Shown here: in pieces, positions 9,810 through 26,577 of the stretch
How positions within the stretch are numbered: position 1 is the stretch's first letter
Layout: every line of letters starts with the position of its first letter
From: a virus
Length of the DNA: 27,052 nt
Virus record (IMG/VR): IMGVR_UViG_3300045256_000094
Reading direction: 5' to 3' (one strand)
The notes under the pieces: generated by a model
Told to the model about the DNA's origin: nothing
Databases searched by the model: none
Seen by the model: only the letters and a program-made list of their open reading frames with translations
Made by a program: the position numbers and the translations under genes

Positions 9810-9824
9810 ATACTTCCTTTTTGT

Positions 9825-10112: not shown

Positions 10113-10275
10113 CCGGCGGCGTATTGCCGATTAGGGACAGAACCGAGTAAGCCAGTCCTTCGAGCCGTTCAGTACGGCTGCCGACTCGGGCGTCCCTATC
10201 CCAGAAGTCCACGAGTTCCGAAACCTTGTTCAGAAACTCCGTCCGTGCGTCGTCGGCATTGGCGGGCGATGCCAT
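10048..10275 (-). CDS. Hypothetical protein (75 aa)
   Basis: GAGGT Shine-Dalgarno. Its start lies 3 nt after the upstream stop. Confidence 0.4.
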   Translation of the reverse strand: MASPANADDARTEFLNKVSELVDFWDRDARVGSRTERLEGLAYSVLSLIGNTPPDALSEGIHDQWGELRYGLCPA

Positions 10276-10278
10276 GCG

Positions 10279-11016: not shown

Positions 11017-11581
11017 TACAGTAGCTCCGTAGCGAGTTGGCGGTAGTCGGCGTGAATCTTTTCGGCGGTTGCCGCCCCGAAACGATTCAAGATGTCGATG
11101 TCTCGCTCTTTGACGAGGGTGGTCAGCCCCCTCGCACGGTTCAGGTACTTCGCAGCGTAGCGACGGTCCGTCACGGCGAAGTCCTTCACGTTACGGTAGC
11201 GGTCGGCCAGCTTCAGGACGACCACTTCAATCGGCTTGTCCTTGTACTCAGTCAAGTGGGCTTCCTTCGCCGCCTGATAGTCCTTCGGCAGTGTTCGTCA
11301 GGCAGCCGGTCCCGGAAGGTCAGCATCTCGACCCACCCGGCGACCTTCTCGCCGTACTTGAGCTTGATGCCTGCGACGGTCATCCCGGCGTCCTCCACGG
11401 TGTCGTGGAGCATCGCCGCAGCCCACAGTTCCGGCTCTTGTTCCCGAGAAATCTGCCACAGAGCCAGTTGCTCGGCCACCCCGAGGACGTGGATCATGTA
11501 CGGGACTTGGGTGCCCTTTCGCACCTGTTCCCCGTGCAGCATCACGGCGTCCATGTAGGCTTTGTGGACAATATCGCTCAT
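11016..11581 (-). pseudogene. Rel/SpoT-type HD-domain (p)ppGpp hydrolase (small alarmone hydrolase) interrupted by a frame change
   Basis: The 5-prime ORF (11252-11581) carries the HD signature: PYMIHVLGVAEQLA...AAAMLHDTVEDAG...YGEKVAGWVEMLTFRD. The 3-prime ORF (11016-11255) carries the downstream conserved block, KEAHLTEYKDKPIEVVVLKLADRYRNV. This is in another frame, minus one relative to the first, with the switch near 11290-11300. The two halves together give about 188 aa, the normal length for this family. Confidence 0.6.
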
Positions 11582-11600
11582 CTCGGCTCCTTTTTGGTTC

Positions 11601-11635
11601 CGCCTCTATTCTACTAGAAGTAGAGGGTTTGTAAA
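11601..11635 (-). promoter_or_regulatory. Putative sigma70-like promoter for the hydrolase gene, with a 15 bp palindrome
   Basis: On the minus strand: TTTACA (-35), 16 nt spacer, TAGAAT (-10), then an AAAGGAG Shine-Dalgarno. An inverted repeat, TCTACT-aga-AGTAGA (11610-11624), sits in the spacer. Confidence 0.3.
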
Positions 11636-11637
11636 AT

Positions 11638-12399
11638 ATGATCCACGCTAAAAAGGACAACTACCAGGGGGTCAACTGGTATCACTGCTTCAAGTTCCCG
11701 GACGGCTCCGAAACGCACGGGCACGACCGGCCGACTGCGGAGAAGGTGTCAGCCATTTTCGACCCAATCGACATCAAAGGCAAGACCGTTCTGGACATTT
11801 GCGCCTGGGACGGCTACTACTCGTTTGAGGCGGAAAGGCGTGGGGCTAAAGCGGTTGTGGCGAACGACCACTACTGTTGGAGCGGACCGGGTTGGGGGAC
11901 AAAGCGTGGATTTGAACTGGCCCGTGAACTTTACGGGTCGAAAGTCCTCGACTACGAATGCGAACTGATGAAAATCGACCCGAACAACGTCGGTCAGTTC
12001 GACGTTGTTCTCTTCCTCGGCGTCCTGTACCACCGGATCGAGGGCTTCCGCTGCCTGGAAATCTGCACCAACGTCTGCAAGGACATGCTGGTGGTGGAAA
12101 CCCTCACGCTCAACAGCGAAGATTGTGTTATTGAATACCTGCCGTCGGACCACATCTACGGGGATTACACCAACCAGATAGCCCCGACAACCAGGGCTGT
12201 TGTAGAATGTCTGTTAAGGTGTAACTTCCGAATGGTGTCATACAACCACTACGCTAAGGTCAGCGAGAGGTATAACAGAACTGTCTTCCACGCCCGGCTC
12301 AGTAAAGCAGTGTTGGTCGAACACGAACCCCCGGCACCGTTTCGGCAATTTGCAGGAGTCTGTCAGACGCCACGTTTATTTTGGCAGCATCGGCCTTAA
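11638..12399 (+). CDS. Class I SAM-dependent methyltransferase, CmoB/DUF1698-like
   Basis: GVNWYHCFKFPDGSETHG, VLDICAWDGYYS (motif I), FDVVLFLGVLYHR and LVVETLTLNSEDCVIEY align by eye to E. coli CmoB: WRKGPF...GVNIDTEW, ILDVGCGSGYH, GVLYHR, LVLETLVIDGDENTVL. Confidence 0.65.
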   Translation: MIHAKKDNYQGVNWYHCFKFPDGSETHGHDRPTAEKVSAIFDPIDIKGKTVLDICAWDGYYSFEAERRGAKAVVANDHYCWSGPGWGTKRGFELARELYGSKVLDYECELMKIDPNNVGQFDVVLFLGVLYHRIEGFRCLEICTNVCKDMLVVETLTLNSEDCVIEYLPSDHIYGDYTNQIAPTTRAVVECLLRCNFRMVSYNHYAKVSERYNRTVFHARLSKAVLVEHEPPAPFRQFAGVCQTPRLFWQHRP

Positions 12400-13441
12400 T
12401 GCGGTCCACCGAAATCTGAACCAATTCCGGTTTGTCGAAGTCTAGGTCAAGCTTCCGCAGGAAGTTCACCTTGATCGGGTACTTCGTGGACGCATCCTCG
12501 ATCTTCTTCTGGGCGTCACGGAACAACTCAACGTTGAAGTTATCCAATGTGATGAGCGGCACGTTGCAGGTCGGATTGAACTCCACTTCATCCATACCCA
12601 ACTCAGCCGCAATCCTCACCATATCAACAACCTCGTGAATGTTAAGTAGGTTGATGTTATTGTGAACACGAGCCACCTGACTCGGGGTACGCTTCTCGTT
12701 ATACTTCTTAGCCTGTTGCATGATCTTCTCAAACAACGGCAAGCGGCGGATCAGCTTATACGTCTCCGGTGTGGCGGCGTCCAGCGAGAACGTGAGACTA
12801 CTCTTGGGGTATTCCAAGAACCGCTCAATGCGGCTATCGGTTAACACCGTGCCGTTGGTGGTTGTACTGATGGCAACCCGGTCCTTGCGTTCATCTATAC
12901 CGAGCCACGTTGCGATTTGGAATAGCTTGTCTTTCCAGAACGCCTCGGCTACTCCCTGGATGTGAACAAGATTGAAATTGAAGGCATAGGGCTTCAACCG
13001 CCTGCACACTTCCTGCAACTTATCCTTCTGGCTCTCGAATCGTAGATTACGTTCGCACATCACGCAAGCCGGGTTCTTCTCCGTCGGCTTGAGTCCGCCG
13101 ATGTTGCAGTGTTGAGACGGCAAGTCAATCTCCAACTCCGTCGGTACGGCCCGGACATTGTATTCTTTAGCTTGTGCCGCAAGTTCGTCCGCCTTCATGT
13201 GTGCGAACGGGCAGCACTTCAACATAGAGCATGTCGAGTGCAACTTGTTATTCAAAGTATCCCGGCGAATCTCATTAGCCAAATCACTGTTCCAGATATC
13301 CTCGAATGTATCCTTTAACAGATTACCCAGACACTTACGTTCTTGGAAGCAGCAAAAAGTTACATCGCCTTCGCAGGTTACTTTAATGCGGGTAAACGGC
13401 AAGGCACAGAACGTCTTCACCGGGTAGTATTCATGAATCAT
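12299..13441 (-). CDS. Atypical radical-SAM enzyme, paralog 1
   Basis: N-terminal Cys-rich module: FCALPF...TCEGDVTFCCFQ...CLGN...IWNSDLA...C...CCPF. Core motifs: HCNIGGLKPTEKNPACVMC (Cx13Cx2C), GVAEPFWK (glycine-rich), ISTTTNGT, FSLDAATPETY. Confidence 0.7.
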   Translation of the reverse strand: MIHEYYPVKTFCALPFTRIKVTCEGDVTFCCFQERKCLGNLLKDTFEDIWNSDLANEIRRDTLNNKLHSTCSMLKCCPFAHMKADELAAQAKEYNVRAVPTELEIDLPSQHCNIGGLKPTEKNPACVMCERNLRFESQKDKLQEVCRRLKPYAFNFNLVHIQGVAEAFWKDKLFQIATWLGIDERKDRVAISTTTNGTVLTDSRIERFLEYPKSSLTFSLDAATPETYKLIRRLPLFEKIMQQAKKYNEKRTPSQVARVHNNINLLNIHEVVDMVRIAAELGMDEVEFNPTCNVPLITLDNFNVELFRDAQKKIEDASTKYPIKVNFLRKLDLDFDKPELVQISVDRIKADAAKINVASDRLLQIAETVPGVRVRPTLLY

Positions 13442-14555
13442 TCTTCACCTTGATCTGTAGTTGTACGAGTTCTTGCGACGGGGCAAGTTCCTGGCCGACT
13501 GGCGGCGGCAGCCGATCAAACGGCTTGGAGTAGAACAGCGGCACCCCCAACTGCTGTGCCCGGTGCATCGCCTTCTCCGAGTTCTCTTTGAATATCTTGA
13601 GGTTGCGTGGGTTCAACAACAAGTCATTCATATGAACCCGGCCACACTGGTCATGAGTCGGCAACATGATGACTTTATCTACTCGCAGTTCAGCCGCCGT
13701 CTCCACCATCTTTACCATCTCGTGTACGTTAATCAGGTTGATGTTATTGTAGATGATAGCTTGGTGACGCTGCGAGCCGCCGTTGCGATCCCGGAGCATC
13801 ATGTAATATCTCATGTTCCTGACGACAAGGTTATAGGCGTCAATTCGCCTGATCTTCTGGTACGTCTCCGGGCTGCCTGCGTCCACCGAGAACTGCATGT
13901 CGGACTCCATTACCTCGTCGAAGTACCGCTCGATGATCTTCTCCGTGAGGCAGGTGACGTTGGTGTTCGTAGTGAAACGGATGTGGTGTTTGTGTTCGGC
14001 GAACCCCACGAGATCAAACACCCGGAACACGGCATCCTTCCAGAACGGTTCGGCCACCCCCAGCACGCACAGGTGCTTCAAGTACGGCATGAGCGGCTTC
14101 GCCTTCTCGCAGAGCGTGTCGGTGATCGGCGGCTGTTTGTGGAAGTCGTAGTTCCGGCAGCACATGATGCAGGCCGGGTTGTCGTCGCCTGGGTCTTCCC
14201 CGCCGATGTTGCAGTGGGTGTTGGGCAGGCAGATTTCCAGGTAAGTCGGGTAATCGTGGTTCTTGTAGCTGCGGAACTCCTCCGGCTCCAAGTCCTTCAC
14301 CAAGTACGGGCAGGTGTTCCAACTCTTGCAGACCGGGTGCATCTGGTTCTGGAGGGTCTGTGAGCGAATATCCTTAGCCAACTCACTGTTCCATAACTCC
14401 ATTACTGTCGTATCCCCGAGGATGTTCCCTAGCTGTGTAAGCTGGTAGCAACACATGGACACGTCGCCCCAGCCGTTGAGGATCAACTTGGTGAAGGGCA
14501 ACGAGCAGAAAGCCTTGTGTGTTCTTTCCGGGATTTCGGAAGTGCGATGGAGCAT
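13431..14555 (-). CDS. Atypical radical-SAM enzyme, paralog 2
   Basis: Same architecture as paralog 1: AFCSLPF...SMCCYQ...LGN; HCNIGGEDPGDDNPACIMCC; GVAEPFWK; TTNTNVT; FSVDAGSPETY. Overlaps paralog 1 by 11 nt. Confidence 0.7.
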   Translation of the reverse strand: MLHRTSEIPERTHKAFCSLPFTKLILNGWGDVSMCCYQLTQLGNILGDTTVMELWNSELAKDIRSQTLQNQMHPVCKSWNTCPYLVKDLEPEEFRSYKNHDYPTYLEICLPNTHCNIGGEDPGDDNPACIMCCRNYDFHKQPPITDTLCEKAKPLMPYLKHLCVLGVAEPFWKDAVFRVFDLVGFAEHKHHIRFTTNTNVTCLTEKIIERYFDEVMESDMQFSVDAGSPETYQKIRRIDAYNLVVRNMRYYMMLRDRNGGSQRHQAIIYNNINLINVHEMVKMVETAAELRVDKVIMLPTHDQCGRVHMNDLLLNPRNLKIFKENSEKAMHRAQQLGVPLFYSKPFDRLPPPVGQELAPSQELVQLQIKVKNDS

Positions 14556-14567
14556 AGAGGTATTTAC

Positions 14568-15299
14568 ATGGCCCCGAGGAAAAAGTTAACTAAGGAACAA
14601 TGGGCAGAGCGATTTGCCGACGCCAAGCACGGCCACGTCCTCTGGGACGGCTGGGCCTCCGACCCGTACAACCCCGAACACGCCTACACGTCGAGCCACC
14701 AGTTCTACAACCACGCCAAGCGGCACGGCTTCTTCAAAACCGGCAGCAGCGTCCTCGACCTGGGCTGCGGCAACGGCCGGGTGCCCATCGCCCTGACCGA
14801 GCATTACGTCAAGTACGTCGGGGTTGACCCGGTTCAAAAGAGTATCGACTTCTGCAAGAAGGCGTTCGCCGATTGGCCCGACTTCCAGTTCATCTTCATG
14901 GACATCAAGAACGAGTCGTTTAACCCGGAGGGGGCCATTGACCCCGCCGCCCTGACGTTGCCCTTCCCTGACGGCCACTTCGATAACGTAATCTGCTACT
15001 CCGTGTTCACACACCTACAGGAGATCACCGTCGCCACCCGGTACATCATTGAAATCCTGCGTGTACTGAAGGAAGGCGGCAAGCTGTTCACGTCCTGGTA
15101 TCGCTGCCCGCCCAACCCCCTCGACAAGTTCGTGGGCAGGACGGTGTTCTTGGAGCGTGACATCCTGAACCTGCTCCAAGACTTCTACTTCAACGAGACG
15201 TATGGCGGGACGACCCCGCAGTATTACGACCAGTGGGCATTGTTCTGTACGAAGGGAAAGCTGCAATCAGAGAGTGATCTGCACGAGTTGGTCAGCTAG
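14568..15299 (+). CDS. Class I SAM-dependent methyltransferase
   Basis: VLDLGCGNGRV (motif I), FDNVICYSVFTHL (motif II), LKEGGKL (motif III). Alternative starts lie at 14517 and 14547, both of which would overlap the divergent radical-SAM gene start. Confidence 0.7.
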   Translation: MAPRKKLTKEQWAERFADAKHGHVLWDGWASDPYNPEHAYTSSHQFYNHAKRHGFFKTGSSVLDLGCGNGRVPIALTEHYVKYVGVDPVQKSIDFCKKAFADWPDFQFIFMDIKNESFNPEGAIDPAALTLPFPDGHFDNVICYSVFTHLQEITVATRYIIEILRVLKEGGKLFTSWYRCPPNPLDKFVGRTVFLERDILNLLQDFYFNETYGGTTPQYYDQWALFCTKGKLQSESDLHELVS

Positions 15300-16310
15300 T
15301 CCCATGTCGAGCGGCCGGATGAAGTTGTACGGCACGTTCAACTTCTGACACTCGGCAATGATGTCCTGCTGGGCCTTTTTGAACAACCCGCAGTTCTGTT
15401 CGTTCACCAGGATCGGCGTGTTGAAGCCGTCCGTCGGATTGAACTCAATGTACTCCACGTTCGCCTTGTGGGCGATGCGCACCATCCCAACAACTTCGTG
15501 TACGTTGTGTATGTTGATGTTGTTGTGAATGCGGAGGAACTGGCGTGCCCTCACCCGTTCCTTCGAGAAGGCGTACAGGTTCTCCAGAATCTTGTCGAAC
15601 AGCGGCAGGATTCTGATCTTCTTGAACGTCTCCGGTGTGGCTGCGTCGATGGAGAAGTTCGTGATGCTCCGGGGCACCCGCCGCAGGTATTCCTCCCGGA
15701 CGTGTTTGTGGAACAGGGTGCCGTTGGTCGTCGTGCTGATCGTGATCTGGTGCTTGTACTTGTCGAATTCCAGAATGTCCAGCATCTCGAACAGCAGGTT
15801 CTTGTAGAACGGCTCGGCAATGCCCTGGATGTGAATCTGGTGCAGGTTCGGGATCACATGCTTGATCCGGGCCAGCACTTCCTTCAGGTGATCCTTCTCC
15901 GGCTTGAAGAACGGGGCGGACCGCTCGCACATGATGCAGGCCGGGTGTGCGGGGCCGGGGTTCTCCAGGCCGATGTTGCAGTGGGTGTTCGGCAGGTCGA
16001 TCTCAAGGAACGTCGGATACTCGTTGTAGATGACCTGGACGGGCGGGCCGGGGTTCTTCATCAAGGCAAACGGACACCCCGGCACCTTGCACTTCTTGTG
16101 CAACCTGCCTTCGAGGGTGTCCGTGCGGATGGCCTCGGCCTCTTCGCCGAACCAGATGTCATCGAACGGTTTTTCGAGAACGTTGCCGATGTAGGCGTCG
16201 GACTCTGCCGCCAGCGGGTCAACCCGCTGGAAGCAGCACATGGCACAGTTGCCCTCGGCTGTCACTCGAAGGCGGTTGAATGGGTACTGACAGAACGCTT
16301 GGACTTCCAT
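15267..16310 (-). CDS. Atypical radical-SAM enzyme, paralog 3
   Basis: AFCQYPF...AMCCFQ...IGN; HCNIGLENPGPAHPACIMC (Cx13Cx2C); GIAEPFYK; ISTTTNGT; FSIDAATPETF. Confidence 0.7.
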   Translation of the reverse strand: MEVQAFCQYPFNRLRVTAEGNCAMCCFQRVDPLAAESDAYIGNVLEKPFDDIWFGEEAEAIRTDTLEGRLHKKCKVPGCPFALMKNPGPPVQVIYNEYPTFLEIDLPNTHCNIGLENPGPAHPACIMCERSAPFFKPEKDHLKEVLARIKHVIPNLHQIHIQGIAEPFYKNLLFEMLDILEFDKYKHQITISTTTNGTLFHKHVREEYLRRVPRSITNFSIDAATPETFKKIRILPLFDKILENLYAFSKERVRARQFLRIHNNINIHNVHEVVGMVRIAHKANVEYIEFNPTDGFNTPILVNEQNCGLFKKAQQDIIAECQKLNVPYNFIRPLDMGLADQLVQITL

Positions 16311-17566: not shown

Positions 17567-17854
17567 TCAATAGACAGAGATTAGGTTACACCTTTCCCCG
17601 TCCTCGGTCAAGCCGACGTGCGGCTTGCCCTTGATTTCCTTGCGTTCGATCAGGTACTCGGCTGCCAACTCGTCCAGCAGCACGTTCAGTTCGGCCAGTT
17701 CGATGCCCTCGATGGCCCGGCAGTCCCGGTGGTTGTTGGGGATGTCCAGCACCGTCTCGACACTGGCGAACTGTGCCCCGCCAGCGGCGTTGGCGACGGC
17801 TTGCAGGGCGGCGATCTGCCGCTCGTTCAGGTTCTCTCCGATGAACCGGCTCAT
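17567..17854 (-). CDS. Hypothetical protein (95 aa)
   Basis: Internal ATG (MSRFIGENL) chosen because it overlaps the upstream stop as ATGA. The longer N-terminal extension is Arg-rich junk. Confidence 0.45.
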   Translation of the reverse strand: MSRFIGENLNERQIAALQAVANAAGGAQFASVETVLDIPNNHRDCRAIEGIELAELNVLLDELAAEYLIERKEIKGKPHVGLTEDGERCNLISVY

Positions 17855-18270
17855 TTCTTCCCCTTCTTCTTGGAGTCGTCCTCTTCCTCTTCCACGAGCG
17901 GGGCGTTGGGGTCGATGCGGTAGCAGGTTTCCATCCGCTTCCGGTCCCAAACGATCACCACCCGTCCTTCCTCGAAGGCGGCGTTGTTGGCGATGTCCTT
18001 CGCATCGGCCAGCACGTCCGTCTCGTCGAAGCTCTTGTACTTGTTCTTCTCTTTCGCATCTTGCAGCGAGATGTCGAACTGCTTGCCGTCCCGCCGCCAC
18101 TCCTCGCCCGGAGGGTATTCCTTCTCCGGCGTCCGTGGCTTCTCTGGCTTGGCTTGTGGCTCTGCGGCCGGTTCTTCCGTAGCCGTGGCTGTCGGGGCGT
18201 CGTCCTCGTCGGCCATCCCAGGCAGAGGGATATCCAGGTCGAGCTTCTTCTTAGACTTGCCACGAGCCAT
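17851..18270 (-). CDS. Hypothetical acidic/lysine-rich protein
   Basis: 139 aa intact ORF. Confidence 0.5.
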   Translation of the reverse strand: MARGKSKKKLDLDIPLPGMADEDDAPTATATEEPAAEPQAKPEKPRTPEKEYPPGEEWRRDGKQFDISLQDAKEKNKYKSFDETDVLADAKDIANNAAFEEGRVVIVWDRKRMETCYRIDPNAPLVEEEEDDSKKKGKK

Positions 18271-18613
18271 CGGCGACTTCCTCCAACCCGGTTATGTCTT
18301 CATTGAAGAGATAGGTGGAAGCGGTCCGCCCGTCGGCCAGGGTGATTTCCTGTCTGCGGAAGAGGCCGGTGTCCACTGCCTCCACTTTATCAAGGATGGG
18401 CAGGATTGTAAAAGGGATTTCGTAGACTTCGCCGTGGACGCCTGGGCCAGTGGGGTCTTCCACCATGCCGGGGAACCAGTTGACCCGATATAAACGAAAA
18501 GCAGGCCCGGTATGGGCCTGCCCTTTGTACTCGGCACCGTTGTTCTGGAGATACTTGTTGAGCCTACCGCCTTGCTTTAAGGTGCCATAGCAGAAGAGGA
18601 GTGTTGTTTCCAT
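18251..18613 (-). CDS. Gamma-glutamyl cyclotransferase / AIG2-like family protein
   Basis: LFCYGTLKQGG...GEVYEI...LDKVE pattern typical of the GGCT/AIG2 fold. Confidence 0.6.
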   Translation of the reverse strand: METTLLFCYGTLKQGGRLNKYLQNNGAEYKGQAHTGPAFRLYRVNWFPGMVEDPTGPGVHGEVYEIPFTILPILDKVEAVDTGLFRRQEITLADGRTASTYLFNEDITGLEEVADGSWQV

Positions 18614-19152
18614 AATGACTCAGCCATCCTTAGCACGTCGGCATCGCTGTAGTCCGACTTCGCCTTATTGTAGATCACGCACACGATTCGACAGTTGTCC
18701 TTCGTGTAGCCCTTGCCGTTGTTCGCCCGGTCAATGGACGGTCGAAACGGCGTGTGAGCCACATTATCCTGTCTTTCGAGTAGCAAGTCAACTCCAGTCG
18801 CCTCGCACTTCATCGTCTTGAGCCGTGCTTCCAACCACTCTCTGTCCAGGTCGCACTCCAGCCCATTTGTCTTCGCCCGGTTCTTGGCGGCGGTGAGCAA
18901 GTTCGTGACCATGCCAGAGAATGTGGCGTTGTAGTCCTTGCGGTATGATCTGTCGTATGCCTTGTGCTTCTCGGTCTTCCGAAGCTCCTTCTGGTAAGAC
19001 GTGAAGTAATCGGCACGCTTGTTGTATTGGTTGTAGCCACCAGACTTTTTATACTCGTTGTAGCAGGGCTTACAACGGCTACCCGGCTTGCCCTTGCTTT
19101 GAGTGAACTGATCGAGCGGCTTTGGCTCTTGGCAGATAGAACATTTCTTCAT
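18577..19152 (-). CDS. HNH endonuclease with an N-terminal zinc ribbon
   Basis: CSICQ...CKPC at the N-terminus. C-terminal HNH-like block: AHTPFRPSIDRANNGKGYTKDNCRIVCVIYN. Confidence 0.6.
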   Translation of the reverse strand: MKKCSICQEPKPLDQFTQSKGKPGSRCKPCYNEYKKSGGYNQYNKRADYFTSYQKELRKTEKHKAYDRSYRKDYNATFSGMVTNLLTAAKNRAKTNGLECDLDREWLEARLKTMKCEATGVDLLLERQDNVAHTPFRPSIDRANNGKGYTKDNCRIVCVIYNKAKSDYSDADVLRMAESLWKQHSSSAMAP

Positions 19153-19197
19153 GTCCTATCTATGCGTGTATGGCGATTTCTCACACCATAAACGAAC

Positions 19198-19219
19198 ACG
19201 CCCCGGATAACCGGGGCGT
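19198..19219 (-). terminator. Terminator-like hairpin downstream of csrA
   Basis: Perfect 9 bp stem, ACGCCCCGG-ataa-CCGGGGCGT, followed on the minus strand by GTTCGTTTAT. Confidence 0.45.
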
Positions 19220-19232
19220 TGGGACAACAACA

Positions 19233-19439
19233 TCACATCGCCTTCCTTGTTGGCTGAGTCGCATCGGGAGCGGGGCGACCGCTCTTGATGGCCTCGTAGA
19301 CTTCCTCCCGGTGGACGGGCACGTCTTTCGGTGCCACGATGCCGAGGCGAACCTTGTCGCCCCGGATTTCCACGACGGTGATCTGGATGTTGTCGCCGAT
19401 GACGATGGACTCGTTCGGCTTCCTCGACAGTACCAGCAT
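19233..19439 (-). CDS. csrA: Carbon storage regulator CsrA
   Basis: [55 protein letters not shown] Shine-Dalgarno. The ORF upstream of this ATG is Arg-rich junk. Confidence 0.85.
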
Positions 19440-19495
19440 CGCAGGACTCCTTTCCAAGAGTCGGGTAGAGTGGGACGGGGAACACGCTTCCAGCC

Positions 19496-19530
19496 GAACC
19501 ATTTATACCCACCACTGGTCCGGGTGTCAA
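19496..19530 (-). promoter_or_regulatory. Near-consensus sigma70-type promoter for csrA
   Basis: On the minus strand: TTGACA (19530-19525), an exact 17 nt spacer, TATAAAT (19507-19501). The -35 element overlaps the clpX stop codon. Confidence 0.5.
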
Positions 19531-20786
19531 GCAGCTTTATTCAAAGGTTTGCTCTGTCCGCAGACCACGCCCTTGTCGATGACAAGGTGCTGGCCGCTCA
19601 GGTCCGGCAGGTCGAACATGATGTCGTTCATGAACGACTCGATCACCGCCTTGAGCGCCCGTGCCCCGGTGCCCTTCTCCTTTGCACGCTTTGCAATCTC
19701 ATCCACGGCGTCGTCCGTGAACTCCAGGTTCACCCCGTCCATCAGGGCGATCTTACGATATTGCTTCGTGAAGGCGTCACGAGGCTGGGTTAGGACGTTC
19801 TTCAGATCGTCCACGCTCAGTTCCCGGAGCGTCGTGACCACCGGCAGACGACCGACCAGTTCGGGGATCAGCCCGTACTGCTCCAGGTCATCCTGCGTGA
19901 CCTGGGCCAGCAGTTCGTTCCGTTCCTTGTGCTTGTCGGTATCCGGGACGTGGCTGGCCCCGAACCCGATCTGGCTCGTCTTCCCGATCCGCTTGCGGAT
20001 GATGTCTTCCAGGCCGACGAACGACCCGCCGCAGATGAACAGGATGTTGGTCGTGTCCACCGGGATGTACGTCTGCTCCGGGTGCTTCCGCCCGCCCTGG
20101 GGCGGCACGTTGGCCGTCGTCCCCTCGATCAGCTTGAGGAGGCTCTGTTGGACGCCCTCACCGGACACGTCACGGGTGAGACTGACGTTGCCGCCGGTTT
20201 TGCGGAGCTTGTCAATCTCGTCGATGTAAATGATGCCCCGCTGTGCCGCCTCGATGTCGAAGTTGGAGGCGTGGAGCAGCTTCAGGATCAGGTTCTCCAC
20301 GTCCTCGCCGACGTACCCGGCCTCGGTCAGAACCGTAGCGTCCCCAATCGCAAAAGGGACGTTCAGCTTCTCCGCAAGCGTCTTGGCGAGGAGAGTCTTG
20401 CCGCTGCCGGTCGGCCCGATCAGCAGCACGTTGGACTTCTCCAGCTTGACTTCCTTCAGTTCAGGGTCGTCAATGACAGTCGCCAGAGCGTCCATGATCC
20501 GCTTATAATGGTTGGTCACGGCGACCGACAGGTGCCGCTTCGGCCCCTCTTGACCAATGATAACCCGGTCCAGGTGGGCCATCATGTCCTTCGGAGTCGG
20601 CAACTTGCCCACCCGCTGTTCCCGAGTGCTGGCAGCGATCATCTCCCGTTCGAGGACGTTGGCGCAACGACCAATGCACTCGCCGCAGATCAGATTGTTG
20701 CCCACTTCCGAGCGGACCATCGCACCGACTTTGGTGCTAGGCTGCCCGCAAAAGCTGCACTTAGGAAAAGGCTTCTTAGTTGCCAT
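19527..20786 (-). CDS. clpX: ATP-dependent protease ATPase subunit ClpX
   Basis: N-terminal C4 zinc finger (CSFCGQ...CGEC), Walker A (GPTGSGKT) and a GYVG pore loop. 419 aa. AAGGAG Shine-Dalgarno. No clpP gene lies adjacent. Confidence 0.9.
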   Translation of the reverse strand: MATKKPFPKCSFCGQPSTKVGAMVRSEVGNNLICGECIGRCANVLEREMIAASTREQRVGKLPTPKDMMAHLDRVIIGQEGPKRHLSVAVTNHYKRIMDALATVIDDPELKEVKLEKSNVLLIGPTGSGKTLLAKTLAEKLNVPFAIGDATVLTEAGYVGEDVENLILKLLHASNFDIEAAQRGIIYIDEIDKLRKTGGNVSLTRDVSGEGVQQSLLKLIEGTTANVPPQGGRKHPEQTYIPVDTTNILFICGGSFVGLEDIIRKRIGKTSQIGFGASHVPDTDKHKERNELLAQVTQDDLEQYGLIPELVGRLPVVTTLRELSVDDLKNVLTQPRDAFTKQYRKIALMDGVNLEFTDDAVDEIAKRAKEKGTGARALKAVIESFMNDIMFDLPDLSGQHLVIDKGVVCGQSKPLNKAA

Positions 20787-20875
20787 GTTGTCTCCTTCTT
20801 GTGAGCGATCCCAACGTACTGCGGCTTCCTATCTTACAGCCGTACACCCCGAGGGTAAACGGCTTTTAACTGCCT

Positions 20876-21640
20876 TCACTGACGGTACTTACGTCGATAT
20901 TCCCGCATCTCAACTTGGACATCATTCAAAATGTCTAACGACTCTTGTGTGGGTGCGGGAACTCTGTAAACCTTTGGCAACGGGGGCATTCGGGCGATTT
21001 CTTGCTCGGCCCCCAACCACATGATGATCGACAGAACGATCAACCACCCCATGTACGGTGCGTTGACGTGGAAGAACGGTGCCCCGAGAGCGTACACGCC
21101 CAAAGCCACGGCTGCTACCCTAGTAACCCAGACGAAGGTGAGGGTCGAAAGACGCTCGTTTTTCGTCAAAGCCGTCAAAATGCTCCGGCCGATCTTCGAC
21201 CCGTCCAGCGGAAACACCGGGACGAGGTTGAACACCAGCATGATGAGGTTCAGGACGAACAGCGTGGCGAAGAAGTCGGCCAGATACCCGCCGTGTTCCC
21301 CGAGGAAGTACAACGGGAAGGCTAGAACGAAATTCACGAGCGGGCCACAGGCAATGATCCAGAATTCCTCCCACGGCGACTGCTTCCGGTCGTCCACCCA
21401 GGCCAGCCCTCCGAACAAGTGCAGGGTGATAGAATCGACCCGCAGGCCAAAGTGCCGGGCGGCGAAGCAGTGACCGAGTTCGTGCAGCAGCACGATCCCG
21501 AACATCACGACCATCACCGGAAGTAGTTTGTAATTGAGCGAGGCTTGGATCGCCAAGAATATCCACCAACTCCAGTGGATATGGATGGGAATGCCGGAAA
21601 TCTTACCGATGTTGATGTTCATGCGTGTCATCCCTGACAT
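20876..21640 (-). CDS. M50-family (site-2 protease-like) membrane zinc metalloprotease
   Basis: HELGH (HExxH) and NLVPVFPLDGSKI (LDG motif), with several hydrophobic segments. The start could alternatively be at 21622. Confidence 0.7.
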   Translation of the reverse strand: MSGMTRMNINIGKISGIPIHIHWSWWIFLAIQASLNYKLLPVMVVMFGIVLLHELGHCFAARHFGLRVDSITLHLFGGLAWVDDRKQSPWEEFWIIACGPLVNFVLAFPLYFLGEHGGYLADFFATLFVLNLIMLVFNLVPVFPLDGSKIGRSILTALTKNERLSTLTFVWVTRVAAVALGVYALGAPFFHVNAPYMGWLIVLSIIMWLGAEQEIARMPPLPKVYRVPAPTQESLDILNDVQVEMREYRRKYRQ

Positions 21641-22631
21641 CCACTCTGCGGTTCTTAAGGTAGTCTGCCCACCTGAGCCGCATGTACTCGTGGTTCATAG
21701 CGAACGTCTCCCTGACGTTCACTTCTCCCTCGCCCGCCACTTCGTTGATCGTCTTGTTCTCAAAGTGGTGAACGAGCAGCAGGTGCAACGCATAGATGTC
21801 GTGCCCGGCCTCCAGCAATCGTAGTGAAAAGTCCGAGTCTTCGCAATAGGCGAAACGCAACTGCTTGTTGAAAAGACCGTAACGCTCGTAGGTCGCCCGC
21901 TCGATGCACATACACCAGCCGCAAACGTAGTCGATTTTCCCTCCGAAAGCCGCCCTGCCGCCCGACGCATTCTCGTCCAGCAGACTCCCCAAGTACCCGA
22001 CGCACTTGGTATTGGGGTTCTGCTGGAGGTAGCCCAGCATGGCCTCGCTCCAGCCCTTGTGTACCTTTGTATCCGAATTCAGCAGGATCAGGTACTCGCC
22101 TTTACCGAATGAAGCCAGTTGGTTGTTCGGCTCGTTGAACCCCATGTTCTGCTCGGACCGGCACCACTCCAGCTTGCCCTCCAGCTTTACCTTCATCTCG
22201 TCGAGGTAGTCCTGCATCTCCTGATTGGACCCGTTGTCCCAGATGTAGATGGTGTAGTTCGTGGTGTTGGCGACGACCGACTCCAGGCACATCTTCAGGT
22301 ACGGCAGTTGGTTACGCACCACGATCAGGATGTCCTTCGAGGCGTCCTTCGCCATGTTGGCGTAGGTGAGTTCTTTCAGTACGGCATCTCGGTTCTGGGC
22401 GAAGTGGTTCTCCGTCAGTTCCTTAATGCGGTTCTGCTTGATCTGGTGCCAGACCGCCTGGGAACACTCCTCGCTACAGATCGGCTGATTGACGTTCAGG
22501 TCACGCCACGGTGTCGAGGCGGAACATACGAAGCAGGGGGCGTTGATCGAGACGGGCAGGTAAGTCGAGCCGTTGAAGTGGAACTGATCCTTCATCGGCT
22601 TGGCCGTCGGGTAGCGTGCGTCGAATTTCAT
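21603..22631 (-). CDS. Family-2-like glycosyltransferase with an N-terminal Cys-containing extension
   Basis: ILIVVRNQLPYLKMCLESV...YIWDNGS...ILLNSDT, the GT-A DxD-type pattern. The first 100 aa carry CFVC...CSEEC. Confidence 0.65.
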   Translation of the reverse strand: MKFDARYPTAKPMKDQFHFNGSTYLPVSINAPCFVCSASTPWRDLNVNQPICSEECSQAVWHQIKQNRIKELTENHFAQNRDAVLKELTYANMAKDASKDILIVVRNQLPYLKMCLESVVANTTNYTIYIWDNGSNQEMQDYLDEMKVKLEGKLEWCRSEQNMGFNEPNNQLASFGKGEYLILLNSDTKVHKGWSEAMLGYLQQNPNTKCVGYLGSLLDENASGGRAAFGGKIDYVCGWCMCIERATYERYGLFNKQLRFAYCEDSDFSLRLLEAGHDIYALHLLLVHHFENKTINEVAGEGEVNVRETFAMNHEYMRLRWADYLKNRRVDVRDDTHEHQHR

Positions 22632-23422
22632 ACACCATCATTATAGTGAAACGCCACGCTTTCACGATCCCGAACAATCGCCTCGTGCAGCCCCACGCTC
22701 TTGAACGTGTCTTCGAGCAGCCGCCTGTTGGCTAACAGGTCGGAGGGTTTCATGACCACCTTGTCCAAGACAAGCTCGTGGTGGGCGAGGTTGTACACGT
22801 TCTTCCCGTGGTAGCGGTAGATGTACTGGTGCCCCTGCGGCATCTGCACCACCGTGCCCAGCTTCACCAACTTCTGCAACACGTTCAGGTCTTCCTCCTT
22901 GTGCTGCTGGCCTGTGTACTCTGGGTACAGCAGGGAGTTGAAGTGCCTATAGGCGTCCTTACGGAACATGATCGCCCCGCACAGCATAGTCGCCCAGAAT
23001 ATCTCTTCTTTGCTCCAGTCGATCCAGTAGAGTGACTTCGTATGCTCGAAGTATTTCAAGTGTTGGCTATATGCCGAGGCTACGGCGTTCGGCATGTACA
23101 TCATGTGTGTGGCGATACGGGCCGGATGGTGAAAGTCGTCATCGTCCCACTGGCAGATGAACTCTCCCCGAGCTATCCCGACAGATAGGTTTCTCAGTGA
23201 AGCCAACGAGATCGTAGGCGACACTTCCACCATGACGATAGACGGGTCGTTCAGTGCGTCTACATACTGCCTCAACGTCTTATTGGACTCAGGCTGGCCC
23301 TGAGCAACAATAACGAGTTCTTTGTTTGGGTATGTTTGATTGAAATAGTTACAGATCGCCTGTGCGGCTAGTTCCGCCCGGTCTTTCGTAACCATTACAC
23401 AACTAACTAGCTTCGTGTTCAA
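22628..23422 (-). CDS. GT-A fold glycosyltransferase, paralog A
   Basis: SCVMVTKDR...ELVIV...ICQWDDDDFHHP. ATGA-type overlap with the upstream GT2 gene. Confidence 0.6.
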   Translation of the reverse strand: MNTKLVSCVMVTKDRAELAAQAICNYFNQTYPNKELVIVAQGQPESNKTLRQYVDALNDPSIVMVEVSPTISLASLRNLSVGIARGEFICQWDDDDFHHPARIATHMMYMPNAVASAYSQHLKYFEHTKSLYWIDWSKEEIFWATMLCGAIMFRKDAYRHFNSLLYPEYTGQQHKEEDLNVLQKLVKLGTVVQMPQGHQYIYRYHGKNVYNLAHHELVLDKVVMKPSDLLANRRLLEDTFKSVGLHEAIVRDRESVAFHYNDGV

Positions 23423-24215
23423 ATGCCACCCCCTCTCTACTCATAACGTTTACTTTGCCAAACTTGAAATAGCCTAACGCCGTCTCGATGTCCGCACGGC
23501 GTCGAAGGATGTATTCGAGCCAGTTCGAGCGGAGGTTGGAGATGTCGGAGTGGTGCGTATAGTCGTACACCTGATTGCAGCCGTGTTGTGAATAGACGTG
23601 CATCCACCCGATATCGTTAATCTGTAATATGTTCTTCTTCGGGACATGCCGCACAAGATCGTTGAGTAATACAGAGTCCTCACCGGCCCGGCAGAACTTA
23701 CCACGCTCCGGGTAACGGAACGGCAGGTGTCGGTAGATCATGATCGTGCCGGGGATCAATGTATTATGATACTGGCCGTCGCTGCCATAGGTCTTCCAGT
23801 CATCCCAATACATTCTGGAAGTATTGAAGTAGTAGTGTAACTGGTTGGTTAAGAAGGAGGCAGCGGCGTCGGCCCGTCTCATCCTCGAATACTGTGCGAA
23901 GAGGCGTGTCGGGTAGGCGAAGTCGTCGTCGTCCCACTGGCAGATGATGTCGCCGCTGGCGGCATAGATCGAGATGTTACGCAATTCGCCGAGGGTGTAA
24001 CTTCCCTTTAGCCAAATCGTCCGTGCGGGAACGCCGTTCAGTTCGGCTTCGAGTTGGTGTTGATACTCGACCGGCCCCTCGTTGACGATGACGAGTTCTT
24101 TGTTGGGGTAGGTCTGATCGGCGAAGCAACGGATGCTTCGCTTGGCGAACTCCAGCCGCCGGGCGGCTGTGACCATGAGGCAGGATATCTTTGGTAAAGG
24201 CTCGACGTTGAACAT
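23403..24215 (-). CDS. GT-A fold glycosyltransferase, paralog B
   Basis: ISCLMVTAARR...ELVIVNEG...ICQWDDDDFAYP. It clearly resembles paralog A. Confidence 0.6.
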   Translation of the reverse strand: MFNVEPLPKISCLMVTAARRLEFAKRSIRCFADQTYPNKELVIVNEGPVEYQHQLEAELNGVPARTIWLKGSYTLGELRNISIYAASGDIICQWDDDDFAYPTRLFAQYSRMRRADAAASFLTNQLHYYFNTSRMYWDDWKTYGSDGQYHNTLIPGTIMIYRHLPFRYPERGKFCRAGEDSVLLNDLVRHVPKKNILQINDIGWMHVYSQHGCNQVYDYTHHSDISNLRSNWLEYILRRRADIETALGYFKFGKVNVMSREGVAFEHEAS

Positions 24216-24217
24216 GC

Positions 24218-24245
24218 ACTAAATGAGAAAGCCCCGGCCAAAACC
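24218..24245. terminator. Perfect 11 bp stem-loop at the boundary of the GT operon
   Basis: GAAAGCCCCGG-ccaaaa-CCGGGGCTTTC. Flanking U-tracts are weak on both strands. Confidence 0.4.
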
Positions 24246-24256
24246 GGGGCTTTCTA

Positions 24257-24472
24257 TCAGTACGCTGGCAGCAGGTAGAACTGGTGCTGGCCGACGACCG
24301 CTTTGATTTTGTCGCAGGTGCCGCTGACGACCGATTCCACTCCGAGTTGTTCGGCACGGAGCTTGGCGAACTTCTTCAGTTCCTCCACCGCCATTCCCAT
24401 CGCCAGCGGGATGCACAGGGCTTTCTCCTGTCCCTGTGCATCCTTCTCGATGATCGTCCACGCTTCGTCCAT
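24257..24472 (-). CDS. Small hypothetical protein (71 aa)
   Basis: Internal ATG (MDEAWTII) with an AAAGGAG Shine-Dalgarno. The longer upstream extension is Arg/His junk. Confidence 0.45.
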   Translation of the reverse strand: MDEAWTIIEKDAQGQEKALCIPLAMGMAVEELKKFAKLRAEQLGVESVVSGTCDKIKAVVGQHQFYLLPAY

Positions 24473-24519
24473 GATGTACTCCTTTTCCCTCCCCACACTG
24501 GAGAGGGAAGGATTGGCGT

Positions 24520-25188
24520 TCAGTCGAGGGTGACGCCCGGCTTGGCGATGAAGCAGTGCGTCTCGGAGTCCCTGGTGATCTTCCCGTCCCGCTTCAGCGT
24601 GTTCAAGCACTGGCTGATGAGGGCGGGCATGTTCCCGTTCTTCTTGCTGACCCACGCCTTCTCGTCGAGGATCACCTTCAGGACGCTCGGCCCGTCGCCC
24701 CCGGCCCGCAGCCCCTTCTCCATGTTCTCCGGCCGGGTCAGGATGCTCCAGACGACGGAGCGGAGGCTGGGCTGACCCGGCTCGGCCTCAGCCGTCTCGT
24801 CGGCCCCGGTGGCTTCCCCGGCCGGTGCGGCACCCTCGGTGGCGGCAGCCGGAGCAGCAGCGGGCTTCCGCCCGCCCCGCTTGGCACCGGGCTTCTTGGC
24901 GGCGGCGGGCTTCTTCTTCTTGGCGAGGATGGCGGAAGCGTCGGGAACGCCCCGGCCGGACTCGTCGTCGGTGGTGGGGCTGGCAGCGGGGAGGGCGGCG
25001 ACCGGGGCGGCGATGGCCTGGGTGGTGCCGTTGGTCGGGACTTGCATCATCCCGCCGAACATGGACATGAGTTGCCGCTGGCCGGTGGTGAACTGCTTGA
25101 GGGCGGCGAAGGTCCGGTCCGCCACAGCGTCGATCTGGTCGAGAACCCCCAACATCCCCTGGTTCGGGGCAGTAGCCGTAGCGCTCAT
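24520..25188 (-). CDS. Linker-histone (H1)-like DNA-binding protein
   Basis: Start MSATATAP with a GAGAGGA Shine-Dalgarno. Central K/A/P-rich tract AKKKKPAAAKKPGAKRGGRKPAAAPAAA. C-terminal about 80 aa with a winged-helix-like pattern, reminiscent of the H1 globular domain. Confidence 0.45.
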   Translation of the reverse strand: MSATATAPNQGMLGVLDQIDAVADRTFAALKQFTTGQRQLMSMFGGMMQVPTNGTTQAIAAPVAALPAASPTTDDESGRGVPDASAILAKKKKPAAAKKPGAKRGGRKPAAAPAAATEGAAPAGEATGADETAEAEPGQPSLRSVVWSILTRPENMEKGLRAGGDGPSVLKVILDEKAWVSKKNGNMPALISQCLNTLKRDGKITRDSETHCFIAKPGVTLD

Positions 25189-25382
25189 CGTGATCCTCTC
25201 GTTTCGGCCTGAATTTGGCGTCCACCCGGTTCGGCCGCAGCCGGGTGAACTTCGGTGATCGAGAACGGTCCGCTGCACCGATTATAAACCGGAGTGCGGC
25301 GTTGTAAAGGGTGCCTCTTATAAATTTCTCGCCCCAAGACTCTCATAGGGGGTCAGAGACTACACAACGAATGGAGGCAACT

Positions 25383-25565
25383 ATGTTAGTCTTGTCCCGC
25401 AAGAAGGACGAAAAAATCCTGCTTAAGCTCGGGTCCGAGGAGGTTGAATTGACCGTGGTTCGGATCGACGCAAACAAGGTACGGCTAGGGATTAAGGCTT
25501 CGGAGAAGGTCGATATTCTCCGAAGCGAACTGGTCGGCAAGGTGGCTACCGAAGAAGCTCGCTGA
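25383..25565 (+). CDS. csrA: CsrA-family RNA-binding regulator, second copy
   Basis: MLVLSRKKDEKILLKLGSEEVELTVVRIDANKVRLGIKASEKVDILRSEL. GGAGG Shine-Dalgarno. TATAAAT -10-like element upstream. Confidence 0.75.
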   Translation: MLVLSRKKDEKILLKLGSEEVELTVVRIDANKVRLGIKASEKVDILRSELVGKVATEEAR

Positions 25566-26577
25566 TTGAGCCGGTGCCTGAGTGGATACGCCTGATGGCG
25601 TTCGCCATCATCTTCGCCGTGGACAGAACGACGAGTTTCGCCCGGTTCACTGAGTTCAGACGGAACGGATCGACCGTATCCGTGACGACGATCTTGGCCT
25701 TCACTTCCTCAAGATGTTTGTTGGCATCCCCTACGAACAGCCCGTGAGTCGCCATAAGAGCATGGACCCGTCCGCCATGCCCAGGCACCGCCTTGCACGC
25801 CTTCGCCATCGTCCCGGCCGTCGAGATCATGTCGTCCAGCACGAACACATCGGCCCCTTCCACGTCGCCGATGATCCGCTTGCCCCCTTCCAGCTTCGTC
25901 TTCGTCCGTAGCTTGTCCAGTACGGCGATCTCCAACTCAATCGGGTAATTCCTCGCCGCCATCTTCCTCTGCAAGCCGTTCAGGAAACGGATGTTGCGGG
26001 GCAGTGCCGAGGAGTCCGGGGAGAGTACGCTGGCCTTCTTGGACTGGATTCGCACCAGTTCGTCCGCCGCCCATTCGGCGAACAGGGTCTTGGCTTCGAG
26101 GTTGTCCGGGTTGCAGTCCATCGAGAAGGCGTTCTGTTCGGCGGCGAGGTTATGGACATCGAACAGGAGGGCACCGCTGATGCCCAGGCTTTCGAGCATC
26201 ACCGCCATCGCCTTCGTCATGACCGGGGCACGGCTCTCCGTTTTACGGTCCTGGCGGGCGTAACACAGGTGGGGGATGACGGGGATAAGTTTGGCTGTAC
26301 TGCGGCAAGCCGTCAGCATCGTCGCCAGCCGCATGAACTTGTCGTTGACCGACAGCTTGTCATCAGTGTAGAGAGATTGAATGACGAAGACGTTGTGGCC
26401 CCGGACGTTCCCTTCGGGGCCGTCCACCGGCTTGACGTAGCACTCGCCGTCCTCGAACTCCTTCTCTTCGTGCGGCGTGAGGGCCACGCCGAGTTCAGCC
26501 GCAACCGACTCGGCATAGGACTTGGTGGAGTTCAGCCCGAAAATCTTGATCGGAGCTTGGTACACCCGGCCGTCCAT
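25546..26577 (-). CDS. prs: Ribose-phosphate pyrophosphokinase (PRPP synthetase) family protein
   Basis: IFGLNS...FEDGECYV...VRGHNVFVIQS; VIPHLCYARQDRK; DVHNLAAEQNAF; LDDMISTAGT; IIGDVEGA. 343 aa. Confidence 0.8.
   Translation of the reverse strand: MDGRVYQAPIKIFGLNSTKSYAESVAAELGVALTPHEEKEFEDGECYVKPVDGPEGNVRGHNVFVIQSLYTDDKLSVNDKFMRLATMLTACRSTAKLIPVIPHLCYARQDRKTESRAPVMTKAMAVMLESLGISGALLFDVHNLAAEQNAFSMDCNPDNLEAKTLFAEWAADELVRIQSKKASVLSPDSSALPRNIRFLNGLQRKMAARNYPIELEIAVLDKLRTKTKLEGGKRIIGDVEGADVFVLDDMISTAGTMAKACKAVPGHGGRVHALMATHGLFVGDANKHLEEVKAKIVVTDTVDPFRLNSVNRAKLVVLSTAKMMANAIRRIHSGTGSISELLR

Follow-up and report, generated by a model that had tools for sequence, protein, structure and literature searches.

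A planctomycete-type and a phage-type CsrA gene in one huge-phage genome

We analyzed two CsrA-family genes, csrA1 and csrA2, encoded in the IMG/VR virus record IMGVR_UViG_3300045256_000094, a stretch of 27,052 nucleotides that is referred to as the window throughout. The explanation that we consider probable, if by no means certain, is that a huge phage encodes two CsrA-family proteins, both functional in RNA binding and differing in origin: csrA1 would have been captured from a planctomycete (Gemmatales-like) bacterium, and csrA2 would belong to an ancestral, clade-wide, phage-only CsrA subfamily. Many bacteria use CsrA as a master post-transcriptional switch, and the fold of the family is an intertwined homodimer of five-stranded subunits with a C-terminal helix. 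The two genes are as follows:

19233..19439, minus strand: csrA1, canonical planctomycete-type CsrA, 68 amino acids (aa) (Pfam PF02599, 99 bits, E 1.4e-28)
25383..25565, plus strand: csrA2, divergent huge-phage-type CsrA, 60 aa (Pfam PF02599, 61.3 bits, E 8.8e-17)

Identity and origin of csrA1 and csrA2

Both proteins exceed the curated cut-off of the Pfam CsrA family (27 bits), in agreement with an earlier note on this DNA that had placed CsrA genes at these positions on opposite strands with about 45% identity; BLASTP finds 23 identical residues out of 50 (46%, E 1e-12). Both also match the PHROG family of CsrA-like regulators, phrog_9500, with E-values of 1.4e-23 for csrA1 and 5.4e-8 for csrA2. 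Among the solved structures, csrA1 matches RsmE (PDB 2JPP) with an E-value of 2.8e-18, and csrA2 is distant from all solved CsrA structures (best E 3e-5). The RNA-binding residues of CsrA, in the E. coli numbering, are L2, L4, R6, and R/K7 in strand beta1 and V40, V42, R44, E46, and I47 in strand beta5. These positions are retained in csrA1 (MLVLSRK ... VPVHREEV). In csrA2, the beta1 residues and the equivalents of Arg44, Glu46, and Ile47 are invariant (MLVLSRK ... VDILRSEL), and Leu and Ser substitute for His43 and Glu45 of the canonical CsrA, respectively. AlphaFold monomer models of equal, moderate confidence, with a predicted local distance difference test (pLDDT) score of about 71-72, predict strands beta2-beta4 in both proteins and a C-terminal helix (residues 44-53) in csrA1 only, which is a hint that the C-terminus of csrA2 is probably non-helical.

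Relatives of the window are referred to by L numbers, with L117, L118, and L120 being the three closest with csrA1 (csrA2 70-87% identical). The start of csrA1 was assigned to the ATG at 19439, which is preceded by AAGGAG, and not to the ATG at 19502 of an 89-aa open reading frame (ORF); the orthologs in L117 and L118 begin with MLVLSRK. The best 80 genome matches of csrA1, with identities of 64-90%, come mostly from Planctomycetota such as Gemmataceae and Pirellulales, and its 52-residue core is 84-90% identical to CsrA of Gemmata, Limnoglobus, and Gemmataceae, with which it has a common 17-residue signature. In 491 of the 500 bootstrap replicates of a neighbor-joining (NJ) tree built on about 52 aligned positions, csrA1 falls into a clade with planctomycete bacterial CsrAs to which the csrA2 type does not belong. 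At the DNA level, the similarity of csrA1 to bacterial csrA genes (76-82%) covers codons 1-51 only, and no homology was found between the csrA1 flanks and the bacterial csrA flanks outside the coding sequence. Since the bacterial csrA locus has a conserved chromosomal context, the direction of transfer would be from host to phage, and the planctomycete type of csrA1 suggests that the phage host is probably a planctomycete. The gene does not form a compositional island, as its GC content at third codon positions (GC3, 0.81) equals that of the ClpX and PRPP (phosphoribosyl pyrophosphate) synthase genes (0.81-0.82), and the ratio of nonsynonymous to synonymous substitution rates (dN/dS) against the L117 and L118 orthologs is 0.04-0.10, which indicates purifying selection. 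Planctomycete-like canonical CsrAs, at most 83% identical to csrA1, were also observed on 12-70 kb viral contigs from IMG/VR that lack synteny with the window (L022-L036), and phages that infect this host group may commonly capture csrA.

A protein search with csrA2 revealed 907 database relatives, the best 120 of which are 67-98% identical and come from contigs of up to 693 kb. Among 50,697 GenBank phage records, the csrA2 type was found in a single one, LR756511.1. The subfamily is characterized by the signature MLVLSRK[KR]DEKILLK-x-G-x-EE[IV]ELTVVRIDANKVRLGI-x-AS-xx-V-x-ILRSEL, in which L2, L4, R6, K7 ... R47, E49, and L50 are invariant. In comparison with the canonical CsrA, it has, besides the two substitutions mentioned above, an insertion in the beta2-beta3 turn, of 3-4 residues but reaching 14 in L021, and a variable tail. 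The csrA2-type clade is monophyletic in 313 of 500 NJ bootstrap replicates. The gene is kept in relatives spanning GC contents from 31% to 57%, and its dN/dS against the L117 ortholog is 0.04; values involving L118 and L120 were not used because of frame offset or saturation (dS not computable).

Since csrA1 groups with planctomycete CsrAs and csrA2 falls into a phage-only clade, the two genes are, on this phylogeny, of different origin and not duplicates of each other, contrary to their earlier description as diverged paralogs. Their genomic positions were compared as well. The csrA2 slot is fixed: the gene is divergent from a small ORF, convergent with the PRPP synthase gene, and on the strand opposite to all its neighbors, and this arrangement is shared by L001, L006, L008-L011, and L117-L120. 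The slot between the genes for ClpX and a GGACT-fold protein holds a canonical CsrA in L117, L118, and L120, so that both copies are retained at the same slots in these three genomes, and the position downstream of ClpX lacks csrA1 in L001, L006, and L008-L014. Judged by this distribution, csrA1 is fixed in one sub-clade, directly downstream of ClpX.

A second CsrA of the canonical type was also found 2-3 kb beyond csrA2 in L016-L020 and 5 kb away from it in L021. Together with the pair in the sub-clade of the window, gene positions thus indicate three different loci at which the pairing of a phage-type and a canonical-type CsrA arose or was maintained. Other relatives (L001, L006, and L008-L014) have csrA2 alone within +/-10 kb. 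In GenBank, tblastn with csrA1 revealed 84 places in 84 phage records and no record with two, and by the same search LR756511.1 has apparently a single CsrA in 595 kb. The canonical copy of L017 belongs to a phage-only cluster (77-100% identity), whose nearest bacterial relatives are planctomycete CsrAs with 69% identity. A canonical second CsrA of the low-GC relatives, P0256, is labeled at NCBI as coming from a Chryseobacterium metagenome-assembled genome (MAG); either a phage contig was mis-binned there, or the label hints at a Bacteroidota host.

The assignment of the window to a huge phage is based on synteny, with the genes next to csrA1 and csrA2 among the anchors:

19527..20786, minus strand: ClpX-like ATPase upstream of csrA1 (Pfam AAA_2 and zf-C4_ClpX), a synteny anchor 50-58% identical in all relatives
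25546..26577, minus strand: PRPP synthase (Pfam), convergent with csrA2, with the same arrangement in L117 and L118

Megablast of 25 kb of the window against GenBank phages gave zero nucleotide matches. At the protein level, seven window proteins matched LR756511.1, a 595-kb uncultured phage, in identical order. The conserved block comprises genes for radical SAM, Metallophos, GGACT, ClpX, M50, three GT2 proteins, a small ORF, and csrA2 convergent with PRPP synthase; it was found in LR756511.1, in a 622-kb JGI contig, in a 693-kb ENA contig, and in IMG/VR viral contigs of 62-459 kb. The window is therefore, by gene content and order, a piece of a huge-phage genome, as its synteny with and homology to curated huge-phage genomes indicate, and its relatives measure 0.2-0.7 Mb. 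A look-up of the exact sequences of both CsrA proteins gave matches only on Logan contigs of 1-4 kb that are identical to the window.

Regulatory regions of the two genes and search for decoy RNAs

The csrA1 region contains the following elements:

19501..19530, minus strand: candidate sigma-70-type csrA1 promoter (TTGACA at 19530..19525, 17-nt spacer, TATAAA(T) at 19507..19501)
19445..19462, minus strand: csrA1 leader hairpin GACUC-UUGGAAAG-GAGUC, predicted in the minimum-free-energy (MFE) and centroid folds, a candidate CsrA-binding site
19219..19198, minus strand: GC-rich terminator-like hairpin ACGCCCCGG-TTAT-CCGGGGCGT, the top terminator match of the scan
18577..19152, minus strand: free-standing endonuclease VII/HNH-type gene, 191 aa (phrog_3322, E 6.5e-29; phrog_1035 endonuclease VII, E 1.1e-18)

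The earlier note had described csrA1 as a discrete unit bounded by a TTGACA-17-TATAAAT promoter and a GC-rich terminator. The promoter motif is present, with its -35 hexamer overlapping the TGA stop codon of ClpX (19529..19527). It was missed by the consensus scanner because its -10 element is TATAAA without the canonical final T, and the region as a whole yields about as many sigma-70-like matches as chance would (10 found versus 5.9 +/- 2.5 expected). The promoter call from this single sequence is therefore weak, and its support comes from conservation in the relatives. In the alignment of the window, L117, and L118, TTGACA is invariant and the 17-nt spacing is kept, while the three genomes share only 4 bases of the spacer itself; the respective -10 elements are TATAAA, TATAAG, and TATATG. 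This conserved footprint makes it plausible that csrA1 has a real promoter of its own. The promoter is absent from L120, where the gap is only 30 nt. No terminator was found at the junction of ClpX and csrA1, and co-transcription or read-through from upstream is therefore possible.

The second boundary of the proposed unit does not belong to csrA1. The hairpin downstream of the gene indeed exists, with a predicted energy of -20.2 kcal/mol (z = -4.2, none of 200 shuffles being as stable), and its tail, GUGUUCGUUU, is only moderately U-rich. In L117, L118, and L120, the csrA1 stop abuts the start of the GGACT gene, with neither the hairpin nor any other terminator present; transcription from the promoter in L117 and L118 would accordingly cover the downstream genes as well as csrA1. 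In the window, csrA1 is separated from the GGACT gene by an insertion of about 0.62 kb (about 19223..18602) that has the hairpin at its 5' edge and includes the endonuclease gene, and the sequence ATGTTGTTGT at 19233..19224, after the csrA1 stop, is a relic of the previous start of GGACT. The endonuclease gene is absent from the csrA1-GGACT slot in all relatives and is unique to the window genome. Comparison with the relatives thus points to the terminator as a by-product of the insertion of a homing-type endonuclease and not as a part of a csrA1 cassette; the appearance of a promoter-terminator unit would be an accident of this insertion. A LAGLIDADG endonuclease was observed in L117 (771-1535), in a location differing from that of the endonuclease VII/HNH gene of the window; mobile endonucleases seem to pepper this phage clade.

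The csrA1 leader contains three GGA triplets within about 55 nt, one of them in the loop of the conserved hairpin beside the Shine-Dalgarno (SD) sequence. The GGA lies in or beside the loop, the SD sequence AAGGAG is partly within the 3' stem, and the hairpin is kept in L117 and L118 as GACUC-U(U)GG(G)AAAG-GAGUC. This predicted geometry is that of a classical CsrA site, and the hairpin is a candidate for one. An autoregulated leader of the E. coli type would have at least two GGA sites, one of which overlaps the SD sequence, ideally in hairpin loops. The background is high: of the 32 genes in the window, 19 have GGA within 22 nt of the start codon and 8 have ANGGA.

Upstream of csrA2, three elements were distinguished:

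25368..25380, plus strand: csrA2 SD block CGAATGGAGGCAA, which has A-U-GGA; invariant among the window, L117, and L118, and nearly so in L119, L120, L008, L009, and L011
25314..25348, plus strand: two copies of (A/C)CTCT(T/C)ATA(A/G), 25 nt apart, conserved blocks
25281..25308, minus strand: divergent sigma-70-like promoter (TTTACA, 16 nt, TATAAT), the best promoter match, 11/12

The csrA2 SD sequence, AATGGAGG, is located 5 nt ahead of the ATG and includes the GGA from which autoregulation of csrA2 had been proposed. The motif is there, but, given how common GGA is in the SD sequences of the window genes, it is not evidence of autoregulation, and the hairpin of csrA1 is the better candidate for a CsrA site. 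The csrA2 leader has a single GGA, the one in the SD; a second, upstream GGA is present in 8 of 15 relatives, including L117 and L120, and is absent from the window.

The divergent intergenic region between csrA2 and the small ORF has 194 nt. Its conserved blocks on the plus strand, ahead of csrA2, are TCTTAYAAATTT, ACTCYYATAGG (the two copies of the 10-mer), and the SD block. A sigma-70-type promoter for csrA2 was sought on the plus strand, and none was found; TTGTAAAG was rejected as a csrA2 promoter element, being the -35 element of the opposite-strand promoter. The motif ACTCTYATAR was also rejected as a general promoter of the window, since only one further copy, with one mismatch, is present (3263-3272, minus strand). 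The divergent promoter faces the minus-strand operon that begins with the small ORF and continues with the glycosyltransferases, M50, ClpX, and further genes, and both CTTTACAA and the -10 element of this promoter are kept in the relatives. The leader of the divergent operon (25189-25274, minus strand, about 85 nt) could be regulated: it combines the conserved stem CACCCGG...CCGGGUG with three GGA triplets, of which one belongs to the SD sequence. Downstream of csrA2, no stable hairpin or terminator was found, and the 3' end of the gene overlaps that of the PRPP synthase gene by 20 nt.

A CsrB-like decoy RNA with repeated GGA hairpins, which the earlier note had suggested to look for, was not found in the window. 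An Rfam E-value scan of these 27 kb, from a genome that is probably larger than 169 kb, revealed no CsrB/RsmY/RsmZ-like RNA, and at E <= 1 it gave only weak matches that are terminator-like or due to chance. Two peaks of GGA/ANGGA density, at 24303-24627 and 17828-18127 (minus strand), were rejected as decoy RNAs, as they are E/K/G-rich coding sequence. The gaps at 9574-10278 and 11017-11637 were rejected for being coding, with small ORFs and a frameshifted HD_4 gene. A very strong hairpin, AGAAAGCCCCGG-UUUUGG-CCGGGGCUUUCU, was observed at 24214-24255 (minus strand; -28.4 kcal/mol, z = -6.5). It separates an ORF of 70 aa from the first glycosyltransferase gene and explains the weak Rfam matches to sX6 and BSnc120.

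Proposed role of the two proteins and alternative explanations

By homology, we infer that both CsrAs act as GGA-binding translational regulators. In the proposed mechanism, csrA1 would mimic the host CsrA and raise the CsrA dosage past the buffering capacity of the host antagonist. In a planctomycete this stoichiometric antagonist would probably be FliW; Planctomycetes are among the phyla likely to use FliW (Zere et al., PMC4682653). The surplus of CsrA would then repress translation of host mRNAs with GGA in or near the SD sequence, the targets in published suggestions being flagellin and defense genes. The csrA2 protein, which appears to keep the GGA-binding edges (beta1 MLVLSRK and beta5 V-x-I-x-R-x-E-L, including the Arg44 equivalent) and would be transcribed alone, opposite to all its neighbors, may act on partly different targets or escape the host antagonist, for example, in timing the translation of phage mRNAs. 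It is plausible, as supposed earlier for this phage, that the post-transcriptional control of the host is reprogrammed, in line with what has been proposed in the literature (PMC8450108, PMC7366521).

Several points weigh against this explanation. The function of both CsrAs is deduced from homology, and RNA binding, expression, and host are all predicted. The planctomycete host call is based on csrA1 similarity and GC content only. On the phylogenetic side, the monophyly of the csrA2 clade has only 63% bootstrap support in a tree of about 52 positions. The second canonical copies of the low-GC L016-L021 sit elsewhere, with nearest bacterial relatives only 69% identical, and some canonical copies may be old phage genes and not recent captures. 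As for regulation, the csrA1 -10 element lacks the conserved final T in all three genomes, and the -35 element, which overlaps the 3' end of the ClpX gene, may owe its conservation to the protein encoded there. The stem of the leader hairpin is invariant and shows no covariation, and the whole csrA1 leader is no more stable than shuffled sequences (z = +1.0). Finally, no Pfam match to FliW was found among the 28 window proteins scanned, which cover 27 kb of a larger genome, and no fliW gene adjoins csrA in the four Gemmataceae loci inspected.

Alternatively, both CsrAs could mainly regulate the phage's own mRNAs, in the manner of translational repression by T4 RegA, with the host Csr network being marginal. 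We regard this as unlikely. CsrA is generally not known from Bacteroidetes, and the Chryseobacterium label of one relative's canonical-type copy would fit such a role. So would the retention of csrA2 over the GC range given above, which implies different hosts, the GGA-containing SD sequences of most window phage genes, and the predicted infection of Bacteroidetes by the largest Mahaphages (PMC7162821). However, the RNA-binding core of csrA1 is nearly identical to that of planctomycete CsrA, as expected of a mimic acting on host targets, and the presence of CsrA in phages correlates with the presence of CsrA in their hosts (PMC8450108). Phage CsrA has also been proposed to repress CRISPR-Cas and to manipulate host regulation and immunity (PMC8450108).

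The RNA site of CsrA is composite, with one subunit contributing beta1 and its partner beta5. A CsrA2 subunit could thus heterodimerize with CsrA1 or the host CsrA, or antagonize them, as a phage modulator that is dominant-negative or switches specificity. The conservation of the dimer-forming core strands in both proteins is compatible with this, as is the co-occurrence of the two types in at least three sub-lineages and at three positions (the window with L117, L118, and L120; L016-L020; L021). We nevertheless consider it rather improbable: csrA2 occurs without a nearby partner in many relatives and apparently as the only CsrA of LR756511.1, so that in these phages it would function without a phage-borne partner.

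A broader scheme, to which we assign little probability, would be a two-component phage Csr circuit carried by the whole clade, in which an antagonist-insensitive csrA2 type is combined with a repeatedly recruited host-type CsrA that takes over the host regulon. The csrA2 type may then control the timing of phage translation or heterodimerize with CsrA, and the host-type CsrA may have been recruited at different loci in each sub-lineage, including relatives whose hosts may be CsrA-free.

Very improbable is the model in which csrA1 is a self-contained moron inserted as a unit with its own promoter and terminator, and csrA2 is its in-phage paralog autoregulated through the GGA in its SD: promoter-like and terminator-like elements do flank csrA1 in the window genome, distant relatives do lack csrA1 downstream of ClpX, and E. 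coli CsrA is established to autoregulate via leader GGA sites, but the model is largely refuted by L117, L118, and L120, which carry csrA1 without a terminator, fused in an operon with GGACT, the terminator belonging to the endonuclease insertion, and also by the grouping of csrA1 with bacterial CsrAs and not with csrA2, by the frequency of GGA in SD sequences, and by the ordinary GC3 of csrA1. Of the features of a phage moron, csrA1 has a conserved promoter but lacks both a terminator that travels with it and an atypical composition. The preferred explanation remains that of a captured planctomycete CsrA beside an ancestral phage-type CsrA.

Other genes of the window and comparison with known systems

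Besides the csrA genes, the window encodes ClpX, an M50 peptidase, three GT2 glycosyltransferases, PRPP synthase, a GGACT-fold protein, SmpB, an RNA ligase, three radical-SAM/SPASM paralogs, and a collagen-repeat, fiber-like protein. The SmpB homolog (6852-7307, minus strand) is full-length (Pfam SmpB, 182 bits); despite its presence, ARAGORN found no transfer-messenger RNA (tmRNA) in the window. Both tmRNA and SmpB have been reported from huge phages (PMC7162821). The HD_4 gene (11017-11581, minus strand), of the RelA/SpoT-type hydrolase family, is split by an apparent frameshift near 11290: its N-terminal part is the ORF 11252-11581, and the C-terminal part runs on in another frame. The radical-SAM/SPASM paralogs (11638-16310) are mutually 35-45% identical, and their block is kept in the relatives. 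Two opposite-strand ORFs interleaved with them (11638-12399 and 14517-15299) are candidate methyltransferases, by position only, on the basis of Pfam domains in the equivalent L118 gene. In L009, the PRPP synthase match is split in two parts about 1 kb apart (10210-12431), as if an intron, intein, or endonuclease had been inserted or the gene partially duplicated.

Phage-borne CsrA has already been published: csrA genes were reported in 30 of 2,517 phages, mostly those of Pseudomonas, and in plasmids as well (PMC7366521), and knock-down of a phage csrA resulted in smaller plaques (PMC11879866). CsrA is mentioned neither in the huge-phage paper (PMC7162821) nor in a jumbo-phage review (PMC7824862), and the dual arrangement and the huge-phage-specific subfamily appear undescribed in the literature searched. 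The co-existence of a host-like and a long-diverged phage CsrA in one genome offers a natural comparison for the features of target specificity or antagonist resistance. In addition, csrA1 gives a gene-based hint that the hosts of this sub-clade of huge phages are Planctomycetota, a phylum with very few known phages, and the signature of the csrA2 subfamily can be used to annotate CsrA in megaphage genomes.

Comparison with bacterial CsrA/RsmA/RsmE proteins (PF02599; 1Y00, 2JPP, 2BTI) revealed common features of the two ORFs: (i) both pass the hidden Markov model (HMM) threshold at a length of 60-68 aa, (ii) both have the beta1 motif MLxLxR[RK], and (iii) both have the beta5 equivalents of Arg44 and Glu46. 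Unlike the bacterial proteins, they are encoded by a huge phage, and csrA2 has the beta2-beta3 insertion, the substitutions H43L and E45S, and a C-terminus modeled without the helix; unlike bacterial Csr systems, they have neither a small RNA (sRNA) decoy nor FliW nearby in the window. The endonuclease VII/HNH gene with its upstream hairpin resembles free-standing homing endonuclease insertions. Like phage morons, csrA1 is an accessory gene with a predicted promoter of its own, inserted between conserved genes in one sub-clade; unlike a moron, it lacks its own terminator in the relatives and has no compositional signature.

The phage and plasmid homologs of CsrA include the RsmM-type proteins of the P. 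aeruginosa phages F116, H66, and phi297, those of the Burkholderia phage DC1 and of PTXU04 (gp28), and the plasmid RsmQ-like proteins. As in those cases, csrA in the window is carried by a mobile element and would manipulate host post-transcriptional control. Unlike the GenBank phages matched by csrA1, which have single copies and are mostly temperate phages of Proteobacteria of 40-65 kb, the window has two copies of different origin. The multi-CsrA genomes (RsmA/RsmE/RsmI, RsmN) and those with CsrA paralogs on Legionella integrative conjugative elements (ICEs; CsrT) include copies that are borne by mobile elements and have diverged in specificity. These are bacterial or ICE genes, whereas the phage pair is known from sequence alone; in both, several CsrAs are likely to meet in one cell, a coexistence mentioned for the Legionella ICE and multi-CsrA genomes in PMC7366521.

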